A stretch of 64,000 nucleotides of DNA from Candidatus Saccharimonadota bacterium (GTDB taxonomy: Bacteria; Patescibacteriota; Saccharimonadia; Saccharimonadales; SLHW01), in contig JBJHDA010000001.1 in the NCBI GenBank assembly GCA_050486305.1, positions 243,071-307,070 of the forward strand, written 5' to 3'. A program made the translations under genes and the position numbers. Position 1 is the stretch's first letter, and each line of letters opens with the position of its first letter. The notes under the pieces are model-generated. The model saw nothing but the letters and a program-made list of their open reading frames with translations, did not search any database and was not told the DNA's origin. Below, piece after piece: positions 5,492-7,694 of the stretch.

Positions 5492-5500
5492 GGAGTGAGT

Positions 5501-5962
5501 ATGTCAGGTACAGAACACAGCCCAATAGTAGAAAAACGAGATCTAGATGTCATTACAGCTGGTCAAGCAGCCCATGCGCTTGAGCTGATTGAAGCGCGGT
5601 CATCCACCCAAGATCAAGCGCCAGTCGTCGACCCATATGCACAGTACCGAACACATTTGACACGTCTTGCGTCCGAGCACGTTGAGGATGCAATGGGAGA
5701 TTATTTATCCCAAACGAGTCAGGAGGAGCTTGGTCTTACTCCAAGGCAAGCAGAACAAATAACCCATATTGCGAAAATTGTTGTCCGGGAGTTTGCTTTT
5801 GATGTAGTGAAAGGACGCGTTTCCCTTGAGCCGCCAAAAAACGGAAGGGTGCATGTGCGACGGACTCATGAATATACACTCGCACCCGGCCAGACGGTAG
5901 AACAGCAGGCACCAGAACCATATACACCAGATAACATTGAAGAAGGAAGAGGGTACAACTAA
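5501..5962 (+). CDS. hypothetical protein embedded between atpG and atpD (153 aa from ATG 5501; GTG 5495 also possible)
   Basis: AAGGAG at 5490-5495 overlaps the atpG stop and sits 5 nt before ATG 5501. The ORF stop at 5960-5962 is 2 nt before the atpD ATG. No recognisable domain. Confidence 0.65.
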
Positions 5963-5964
5963 CA

Positions 5965-7353
5965 ATGGCAACAGCAACGAAGAAAAAACAACAGACAACC
6001 GGCGCAATAAGCCAAATTATGGGTGTGGTGATTGACGTTACCTTCCCGGAAGGTAAGCTGCCGGCAATTTATAATGCACTTATCGTTAAGGCAGATGACC
6101 GTGAAGTAACGCTTGAAGTCGCGCAGCACTTGAGCGAAACCAGCGTCCGGGCAATCGCGCTCAGCGGAACGGATGGCGTTCAGCGTGGGTTCGAGGTTGA
6201 GGATACCGGTGCTCCAATTAGTGTGCCGATTGGCGAGGCAACCCAGGGGCGTATGTTTAACGTCACGGGTGACCCGATAGACGACAAATCGGCTGACTTT
6301 AAAGAAACCGCTGCAATCCACCGTGCACCCCCTGCCCTGTCAGAGCAGTCTGGCGAGACAGAAATTTTAGAGACCGGCATCAAGGTTATCGACCTTATTG
6401 CGCCGATCACAAAGGGGGGTAAGGTCGGCTTGTTCGGTGGTGCTGGCGTTGGTAAAACCGTGCTTATTCAGGAGCTTATCAACAACATTGCCAAGTTCCA
6501 CAGCGGTAACTCCGTGTTTGCTGGTGTTGGTGAACGTACCCGTGAAGGAAATGATCTTTACTACGAGATGAAAGAAGCCAACGTGCTCGATAAAACTTCC
6601 CTTGTGTTCGGGCAGATGAACGAGCCACCGGGAGCACGTTTGCGAGTGGCGTTGAGTGGCTTGACGATGGCAGAGGGCTTCCGCGACCAAGGAAAAGACG
6701 TACTGCTCTTTATCGATAATATTTACCGCTTTACTCAGGCGGGTTCTGAGGTGTCTGCCCTGCTTGGCCGATTGCCGAGCGCAGTGGGCTACCAGCCAAA
6801 CCTCGCTGAGGAAATGGGCCGTCTGCAGGAACGTATCACCAGCACCAAAAAGGGTTCCGTCACCTCTATTCAGGCCGTTTACGTGCCAGCAGACGACCTG
6901 ACCGACCCTGCTCCAGCTACGACGTTCTCACACCTTGACTCGACCATCGTACTAAACCGTGCACTTACCGAGATAGGTATTTACCCGGCAGTTGACCCGC
7001 TCGACAGTAACTCAACTATCCTTGACCCGGAAATCGTTGGCCAAGATCACTATGAGGTAGCTCGTGACGTGCAGCGCATACTTCAACGGTACAAAGACCT
7101 TCAGGATATTATTGCAATCTTGGGTATGGAGGAGCTGTCAGATGAGGACAAGCAAACCGTTGCCCGCGCCCGACGCATCCAGCGGTTCTTGAGCCAACCA
7201 TTCTACGTTGCAGAGAAGTTTACCGGCAACCCAGGCTCCTACGTGTCGCTAAAAGACACGATTGCTGGATTCCGCGAAATCCTAGACGGAAAGCACGATG
7301 ATAAGAGCGAGCAGTCTTTCTACATGAAGGGCGCGATAAAAGAGGTCAAATAA
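5965..7353 (+). CDS. atpD: F0F1 ATP synthase subunit beta
   Basis: Walker A 'GGAGVGKT', '[10 protein letters not shown]', and the 'DDLTDPAPA' beta signature. Confidence 0.97.
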
Positions 7354-7355
7354 GC

Positions 7356-7694
7356 ATGACATCCCCAGAAGACATTACAAGCCAGGATGTTTATGAGCCA
7401 GAGCAGTCACGATTAGCTGCCGAAGCGGATGTTTATTCTGGTTACGGCGATAAACGACCAGATGCGCCTCTCGCTGGTGATGCTGCTGGTATGCGACGGA
7501 TCGGTACCGTTGCGATTGGTGGCCATGCTCCAGCCGACGATTTACCCGCTGGGCGTGTAGTCGATGGCTGGGGAGACGGTCAACGATCGGATGCGGTAGA
7601 GACACAGTGGGGTCTGACGCGTCTCAATCAAGTAAGCTCAGTTACAAGAGCAATTATCGAGCGAGAAGAACAAGAGGGGTTTAACGAGTCATGA
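7356..7694 (+). CDS. hypothetical protein embedded between atpD and atpC (112 aa)
   Basis: ATG lies 2 nt after the atpD stop. Its TGA (7692-7694) overlaps the atpC ATG (7691) as ATGA. Acidic and Gly/Asp-rich, with no recognisable domain. Confidence 0.6.
   Translation: MTSPEDITSQDVYEPEQSRLAAEADVYSGYGDKRPDAPLAGDAAGMRRIGTVAIGGHAPADDLPAGRVVDGWGDGQRSDAVETQWGLTRLNQVSSVTRAIIEREEQEGFNES

Follow-up and report, generated by a model that had tools for sequence, protein, structure and literature searches.

The atp operon of a Candidatus Saccharimonadota bacterium (assembly GCA_050486305.1, contig JBJHDA010000001.1) lies within a 64,000-nt stretch of DNA, hereafter the window, and carries two small genes, termed orfX and orfY, inside its F1 half: orfX between the genes for subunits gamma and beta, and orfY between those for beta and epsilon. 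Bacterial atp operons are a textbook case of fixed gene order. We conclude that orfX and orfY are real protein-coding genes, and we favor, with modest confidence, the reading that they are weakly constrained, dispensable hitch-hiker genes residing at permissive junctions of the operon. In related genomes, these junctions are slots, the occupants of which are mostly unrelated to one another and are present, absent or replaced between close relatives with conserved flanking genes. Literature searches retrieved no published account of interrupted atp operons in Saccharibacteria. Positions are given in 1-based coordinates of the window, and the loci of relatives are labelled L002-L088.

Coding status and relatives of orfX and orfY

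The operon is complete, of the F type, and located on the + strand in the order atpB-E-F-H-A-G-orfX-D-orfY-C. Its F1 portion is composed of atpG (F1 gamma, 4625-5491, 288 residues; PF00231, E = 3.1e-89), orfX (5501-5962, 153 residues), atpD (F1 beta, 5965-7353, 462 residues; PF00006 at 5e-74, together with PF02874 and PF22919), orfY (7356-7694, 112 residues) and atpC (F1 epsilon, 7691-8143, 150 residues; PF02823, E = 1.2e-16), with orfX and orfY delineated by open reading frame (ORF), codon usage and relatives. The coordinates and coupling geometry proposed for both junctions in an earlier, sequence-only reading of this DNA are exact. As read from the sequence, a Shine-Dalgarno motif, AAGGAG (5490-5495), overlaps the TAA of atpG (5489-5491) and is positioned 5 nt ahead of the orfX ATG at 5501; initiation at the in-frame GTG at 5495 is conceivable but less likely. 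The TAA of orfX (5960-5962) is followed by 2 nt (CA) and then the ATG of atpD at 5965. Similarly, the TAA of atpD (7351-7353) is followed by 2 nt (GC) and the ATG of orfY at 7356, and the TGA of orfY (7692-7694) shares bases with the ATG of atpC at 7691 in an ATGA overlap (7691-7694). Across the orfX-orfY region, no Rfam family was matched and a consensus scan revealed no plausible internal terminator. The same scan places a terminator-like hairpin followed by a T-rich tail at 8182-8197 (+), downstream of atpC, which probably represents the end of the operon.

Both intergenic stretches are open to an extent that is not explained by composition. A stop-free frame covering 99% of the gap arose in 8 of 20,000 composition-preserving shuffles of the gamma/beta gap and in 214 of 20,000 shuffles of the beta/epsilon gap. 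The in-frame codon log-likelihood per codon is 0.286 for orfX and 0.310 for orfY, as compared with 0.287 +/- 0.096 for chunks of long genes in the window and -0.71 +/- 0.23 for off-frame reading. In the orfY motif ETQWGLTR, six of the eight codons differ from those of the homologue in L003, all synonymously, and the orfX motif EHV(E/D)D is likewise kept while its codons change synonymously. Because the frames exceed chance, the codons are gene-like and the motifs vary only at synonymous sites, orfX and orfY are real genes. The GC content at third codon positions is 0.37-0.38 for the two genes and 0.47-0.57 for the atp genes, a difference that fits either a foreign origin or weak codon selection.

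The orfX product is acidic (isoelectric point (pI) 5.2) and soluble, with a conserved N-terminal motif, RD-DV-QA-H-LIEA, and a conserved central helical region, EHVEDAM-DY...ELGLT-Q...VREF. Its C-terminal EEGRG is encoded by codons that contain the ribosome-binding site of atpD, and conservation of this segment therefore need not reflect constraint on the protein. The orfY product is also acidic (pI 4.3) and has the conserved motifs D-RP, RIG--A--G, GR--DG-G and ETQWGLTR. Single-sequence AlphaFold2 models of both proteins are of low confidence. The orfX model, with a predicted local distance difference test score (pLDDT) of 48.5, contains helices in the region of residues ~47-103, and in the orfY model (pLDDT 56.8) the N-terminal two thirds are predicted to be disordered and are followed by a C-terminal helix (75-110).

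The gamma subunit of the window groups with Candidatus Saccharibacteria (TM7), and its nearest species representatives are L002-L004, metagenome-assembled genomes (MAGs) from sediment, with gamma identities of 88%, 79% and 75%. In an initial search of 5.8 billion proteins, orfX and orfY each matched only itself. A full HMMER scan of 1.84 billion representative proteins yielded an orfX family of 4 proteins, and a profile search of the 5.8 billion proteins yielded an orfY family of 6. The orfX relatives are found at the atpG-atpD junction in L002, L082 and L083/L084, and the orfY relatives at the atpD-atpC junction in L003, L004, L083 and L085-L088. In most of the latter, the orfY homologue is followed by a second ORF of 61-73 residues, which is absent from the window. 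The proposal that both genes are lineage-specific and translationally coupled is borne out; the relatives are few, and all are located at the same junction.

Neither gene could be assigned to a known family. Pfam at E values up to 1 gave no family for either ORF and NCBIfam no relevant match; PADLOC and PHROGs returned only chance-level matches, and a profile search of the PDB with the orfX family gave a single chance-level match (E = 0.32). With respect to canonical F1Fo subunits, no Pfam or NCBIfam match was obtained, and BLASTP against the proteins of the window gave a best E value of 0.15. Pfam revealed no similarity to AtpI, AtpZ, zeta/DUF1476 or IF1 (the libraries may not include AtpTheta), and neither paralogues of orfX and orfY nor degenerate copies of atp genes were found within the window. 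The earlier statement that neither sequence resembles a known ATP synthase subunit agrees with these searches of Pfam, NCBIfam, the PDB and the window proteins, and the profile hidden Markov model (HMM) searches that it had recommended placed neither ORF in a known family. By these comparisons, orfX and orfY are near-orphans of a small Saccharibacteria clade.

Gene insertion at F1 junctions of Saccharibacteria

The atp genes were located and every junction was measured in 80 related loci, 59 of which are Saccharibacteria atp operons, with an insert defined as a junction gap of at least 140 nt. Among the Saccharibacteria operons, inserts are present at 15 of 57 alpha/gamma (A-G) junctions, 31 of 56 gamma/beta (G-D) junctions and 15 of 52 beta/epsilon (D-C) junctions. 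On the Fo side, the B-E (0/34), F-H (0/44) and H-A (0/44) junctions contain no inserts, and the three found at E-F (3/34) are not filled by ORFs. The difference between F1-side and Fo-side junctions is pronounced (Fisher p = 4e-17). The premise of the sequence-only reading, that nothing normally intervenes in the series atpA-atpG-atpD-atpC, therefore fails within Saccharibacteria, as the G-D figures illustrate.

The inserts are same-strand ORFs that span the gap from end to end, and 4-nt overlaps are frequent. On the + strand, the longest stop-free frame takes up a median share of 0.98-0.99 of the gap, as compared with 0.49-0.64 on the - strand. Such end-to-end filling is seen at about 60 independent junctions. 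Bacillales have occasional long atp gaps, without ORF filling of this kind. Clustering of the 81 junction ORFs by BLAST gave 68 groups, and iterated local HMMs, hhalign and all-versus-all BLASTP revealed no links among them beyond the small orfX and orfY clades. The ORF at the G-D junction of L014 contains masked bases (N) at ~6910-7010, and its length and content are unreliable there. The junction ORFs nearest to the window are orphans and are mostly acidic, with a median pI of 4.6. Acidity was considered as a defining trait of junction ORFs and set aside as a weak signal, since the proteome of the window is itself acidic (median pI 5.45).

Pfam domains identified among the junction ORFs include NUDIX, His_Phos_1, Nuc_deoxyrib_tr-like, GNAT, Flavodoxin_2 and 23S_rRNA_IVP. 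A histidine phosphatase and a NUDIX protein occupy 6879-7872 of L038, a NUDIX protein and a 211-residue ORF occupy 6879-8009 of L045, and a NUDIX protein alone is found at 6879-7325 of L052; nucleoside-deoxyribosyltransferase-like proteins are present in L042 and L047-L049. In L050, a termite-gut MAG (1214-5043), all three F1 junctions are filled, with a 166-residue ORF of no known family at A-G, a GNAT acetyltransferase at G-D and a flavodoxin-like/FMN-reductase protein at D-C. A 23S-rRNA-intervening-sequence protein (PF05635) is located at an atp junction of L074 (1173-1529), and two further PF05635 matches probably belong to L009 (3963-4334) and L020 (3617-4006). This family is otherwise known from insertions in rRNA genes, which are conserved and highly expressed. 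In Nanosynbacter-like Saccharibacteria, genes of nucleotide metabolism are stacked between atpG and atpD (L038, L045, L052, L044:6037-6543 and L042:1745-2122), and this bias at the G-D junction may be meaningful given the dependence of these organisms on salvage.

Comparisons between closely related loci show that the occupants turn over. A 418-bp insert is present in L039 and L043 and absent from L040 and L041, although the atpG genes are 94-96% identical at the nucleotide level, and Nanosynbacter-like genomes at 85-92% atpG identity contain differing cassettes or none. Different as they are, the Nanosynbacter-like cassettes all start at the ATG within the terminal CAATGA of atpG and share the same flanks, and they are stacked in tandem in L038 and L045, with the single NUDIX gene in L052. 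The 5' end of atpD also differs with insert status: MSKTLGKIIQIVG is common to the insert-bearing genomes, whereas the insert-less genomes have MAKDLGK, which suggests that recombination has exchanged parts of the flanking genes. In addition, the NUDIX cassette is followed by a 14-codon mini-ORF, MKSEINTKEVRRKN, at L038:7883-7927 and L052:7336-7380, with the same sequence in L045. The TGA of this mini-ORF overlaps the ATG of atpD (TGATG), bridging the stop of the NUDIX gene to the start of atpD, and the mini-ORF looks like a translational relay that would restore coupling after insertion. A second case is provided by L004 and L083, the beta subunits of which are 96% identical. Their D-C ORFs are related (51% and 71% identity), whereas their G-D ORFs, of 176 and 94 residues, are unrelated.

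Constraint, mechanism and alternative readings

The rate at which orfX and orfY evolve bears on every reading of their function. In comparisons with species-level relatives (L002-L004 and L083), the proportion of synonymous differences is saturated at 0.66-0.83, and the resulting dN/dS ratios (omega) are upper bounds. For orfX, the window and L083 share 55% amino acid identity with an omega of at most 0.28 (beta, 90% identity), and the window and L002 share 34% identity with an omega of at most 0.38 (gamma, 88%; delta, 57%). Over longer distances, omega is at most 0.16-0.38, again with saturated dS. Because delta drops to 34% identity between the window and L003, the pace of the orphans only modestly exceeds that of the most variable genuine subunit. 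The sole unsaturated pair, L003 and L088, contains few substitutions. In this pair, the orfY homologue (Y1) has 11 non-synonymous and 5 synonymous changes (omega 0.5-0.7), the second small ORF (Y2) has 20 and 12 (omega 0.47), and the adjacent segment of atpC has 0 and 6 (omega 0). Entire domains have also been lost: the orfX homologue of L003 (67 residues) retains only the N- and C-terminal motifs, with the central domain deleted, and that of P0003 (94 residues) is missing the N-terminal motif. Judged from these alignments, purifying selection on the orfX and orfY families is weak, with dN/dS of about 0.2-0.7.

In the hitch-hiker reading, the alpha/gamma, gamma/beta and beta/epsilon junctions would be permissive sites, two of which are filled by orfX and orfY, and these sites would have seen many rounds of insertion, stacking, replacement and loss of unrelated genes across the phylum. 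An insert would survive only if it is co-directional and coupled, with its start codon abutting or overlapping the stop of the preceding gene and its stop codon abutting or overlapping the start of the following one, an arrangement that would leave transcription and the flow of ribosomes to the downstream F1 genes intact. Being promoterless in a small genome that is poor in promoters, orfX and orfY would borrow their expression from an operon that is conserved and constitutively expressed, and each would have a real but dispensable function of its own without being a stoichiometric subunit of the ATP synthase. We infer that the genes of the window arose through the same insertion process as the other junction genes, that genes are exchanged when DNA taken up by natural transformation undergoes homologous recombination with the conserved flanking atp genes, and that inserts are tolerated because the ATP synthase is dispensable. 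Natural competence has been described in Saccharibacteria, as has the recombination of DNA with homologous flanks of about 1 kb (PMC10633639). Transposon sequencing of Southlakia epibionticum in co-culture showed that every component of the F-type ATP synthase is dispensable (PMC10633639), a property that would lower the cost of polar insertions. The Saccharibacteria ATP synthase probably runs in reverse (PMC10633639).

Several observations weigh against the hitch-hiker reading. The clustering of inserts at F1 genes and their avoidance of the Fo half could mean function and not tolerance. Clear turnover is seen in the Nanosynbacter-like clade and in the L004/L083 pair and not for the ORFs of the window themselves; in the clade of the window, ORFs that had been replaced would look no different from ORFs that had diverged past recognition. 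In addition, all members of the orfX family (4-5) and of the orfY family (6) are located at their own junction and nowhere else, which counts against the reading because a dedicated F1 partner would give the same pattern. Lastly, no border repeats or insertion scars are seen around orfX and orfY in the window.

The most serious competitor is the proposal, made by the sequence-only reading from operon geometry, that orfX and orfY encode lineage-specific F1 partners. Such a partner would be an assembly factor or a hydrolysis inhibitor or regulator, with a role like that of the epsilon C-terminal domain, zeta, IF1 or AtpTheta, and would be synthesised alongside gamma, beta and epsilon, so that it encounters its partners during translation. 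The strictly fixed position of both families, their tight translational coupling and the confinement of inserts to F1-side junctions are all consistent with this proposal, as is the retention of short motifs in soluble acidic proteins that are otherwise variable and in part disordered or helical, a combination typical of partner-binding peptides. Control of hydrolysis would also be relevant if the Saccharibacteria enzyme is, as is probable, reversed (PMC10633639). The geometry, however, is not diagnostic, as in other Saccharibacteria the same arrangement is used at these junctions by NUDIX, histidine phosphatase, GNAT, flavodoxin-like and 23S-rRNA-intervening-sequence proteins and by dozens of unrelated orphans. 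Unrelated enzymes occupy the same slots in other lineages, and inserts are missing from many Saccharibacteria, among them near relatives with one or more empty junctions. Further points against a subunit-like role are the loss of whole domains in L003 and P0003, the omega of 0.5-0.7 as compared with 0 for atpC, and the lack of similarity to ATP synthase subunits or known regulators in Pfam, NCBIfam and the PDB. The two comparative checks suggested with this proposal gave divided answers: position is kept in every relative that has the family, but other Saccharibacteria have other genes or none there, and omega is at most 0.28-0.38 where dS is saturated and 0.5-0.7 in the unsaturated L003/L088 pair. 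Taken together, dedicated F1 partners are unlikely, though plausible.

Alternatively, orfX and orfY may be translated spacers, in which the frame is kept open only since untranslated DNA would cause polarity or uncouple the downstream F1 genes, and the peptides themselves have little or no function. A near-neutral omega would be expected of spacers, and in Y1 and Y2 together 31 non-synonymous changes stand against 17 synonymous ones (one-sided binomial p = 0.05, with an assumed synonymous fraction of 24%). In-frame insertions and deletions, domain losses, very fast turnover and low-confidence, largely disordered structure models fit as well, and the 14-codon relay ORF of Nanosynbacter-like loci shows that translational bridging is itself selected. 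Spacers do not, however, account for the preservation of ETQWGLTR and EHV(E/D)D amid synonymous codon change, for an omega of at most 0.16-0.38 over longer distances or for codon usage that cannot be distinguished from that of real genes, and many of the genes found in these slots encode intact enzymes. We regard translated spacers as rather unlikely.

It is also conceivable, if doubtful, that the acidic orphans at these junctions, orfX and orfY among them, form a hyper-variable class of F1-binding modulators, acting as hydrolysis brakes or assembly factors, that are made in cis and have had their orthology erased by divergence. If true, a universal enzyme would, in Saccharibacteria, be subject to a fast-changing layer of regulation that has not been seen before.

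Mobile-element remnants or cargo, such as a toxin-antitoxin pair, a homing-type element or a defence gene targeting conserved, highly expressed genes, would explain the cassette-like stacking and the presence of 23S-rRNA-intervening-sequence-type proteins in the same slots (L074 and probably L009 and L020). This origin is very improbable, as orfX and orfY have no PADLOC, PHROGs or Pfam match, no terminal repeats are present, and no nuclease, integrase or recombinase domain was detected in the 73 junction ORFs scanned with Pfam. That both stretches are non-coding spacers open by chance is hardly credible, since only the lack of homologues speaks for it, and the shuffles, the codon statistics, the homologues with synonymous-only changes and the end-to-end filling at about 60 junctions contradict it.

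Operon context, known systems and significance

The upstream half of the operon (821-4618) has tight junctions of 35, 43, -4 and 16 nt and comprises atpB (subunit a, 821-1795), atpE (1831-2064), atpF (2108-2632), atpH (delta, 2629-3024) and atpA (alpha, 3041-4618), all on the + strand. Of these, atpH was identified by a match to the Pfam OSCP profile (E = 8e-16), and the other four from the ORF list and tblastn to relatives. The atpH product is short, with 131 residues that cover positions 47-170 of the 172 in the OSCP profile, such that the first ~45 residues of the N-terminal domain are missing. A short delta is found phylum-wide, with 124-137 residues in most Saccharibacteria loci and a maximum of 162, in operons with and without inserts. 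The idea that orfX or orfY substitutes for the missing N terminus was rejected, delta length being independent of inserts. Other subunits have unusual tails. Subunit a has a C-terminal extension of ~55 residues that is rich in His, Asp, Glu and Pro (atpB 3' end, ~1630-1795) and is absent from L002 (324 versus 279 residues), alpha has an acidic tail (atpA 3' end, 4570-4618), and epsilon has a basic tail, KKRKRTRSRAPDNIQ (atpC 3' end, 8095-8143).

Elsewhere in the window, two tandem ORFs of 841 residues (57647-60172 and 60272-62797) have near-identical N termini, MKPFYSQTTDESL... and MKPFYNQTTDEAL..., and appear to have arisen by tandem duplication of a gene. Gene-like codons also characterise several further small ORFs with very acidic products (pI 4.0-4.6), at 108-536 (-), 13377-13796 (+), 45756-46103 (-) and 50265-50666 (+). 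The best matches to gamma outside Saccharibacteria come from salt- or alkali-associated genera, e.g., Alteribacillus, Lentibacillus and Natronospirillum. These acidic ORFs, the acidic proteome, the sediment relatives and the gamma matches hint at a saline or alkaline habitat.

The junction phenomenon is a variation on two known themes, accessory atp genes and cassette slots between conserved genes. Similar to orfX and orfY, the accessory genes atpI/uncI, atpZ and the N-type atpQ/atpR are small, non-catalytic, co-transcribed and lineage-restricted. Their products, however, are membrane proteins of recognisable families encoded upstream of or beside the Fo genes, whereas orfX and orfY encode soluble, acidic proteins without a family and are located between F1 genes. 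The F1 inhibitors, including mitochondrial IF1, alphaproteobacterial zeta, cyanobacterial AtpTheta and the epsilon C-terminal domain, resemble orfX and orfY in being short, partly disordered or helical, fast-evolving and lineage-specific, and a reverse-running enzyme would be a sensible target for proteins of this type. The two groups share no similarity in sequence or profile comparisons. To our knowledge, the genes for regulators of this kind do not, as a rule, lie between those for gamma, beta and epsilon.

Cassette slots, such as integron arrays, phage "morons" and the free-standing genes between conserved phage genes, share more features with the atp junctions. Both hold heterogeneous, promoterless, co-oriented genes in a fixed slot, with presence or absence in close relatives, tandem stacking and expression from the host transcription unit. 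Unlike in integrons, no integrase, attC-like repeats or mobile-element genes are seen at the atp junctions, the slots are part of a housekeeping operon, and coupling is always preserved. As aforementioned, PF05635 proteins sit in conserved, highly expressed genes and are also found at atp junctions; neither orfX nor orfY gave a match to PF05635.

In more than half of the species-level Saccharibacteria genomes, gamma and beta are separated by additional co-translated genes, and the F1-side junctions act as slots in which promoterless genes are captured, stacked, swapped and lost with coupling unbroken. As orfX and orfY illustrate, operon position and coupling alone are insufficient to assign the status of an ATP synthase subunit. 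If the pattern holds, these junctions would be an example of how reduced, naturally competent genomes trial and express new or orphan genes, would offer natural "safe-harbour" expression sites for the engineering of Saccharibacteria, and would provide defined candidates for F1 regulation in organisms in which the ATP synthase is dispensable and probably reversed.

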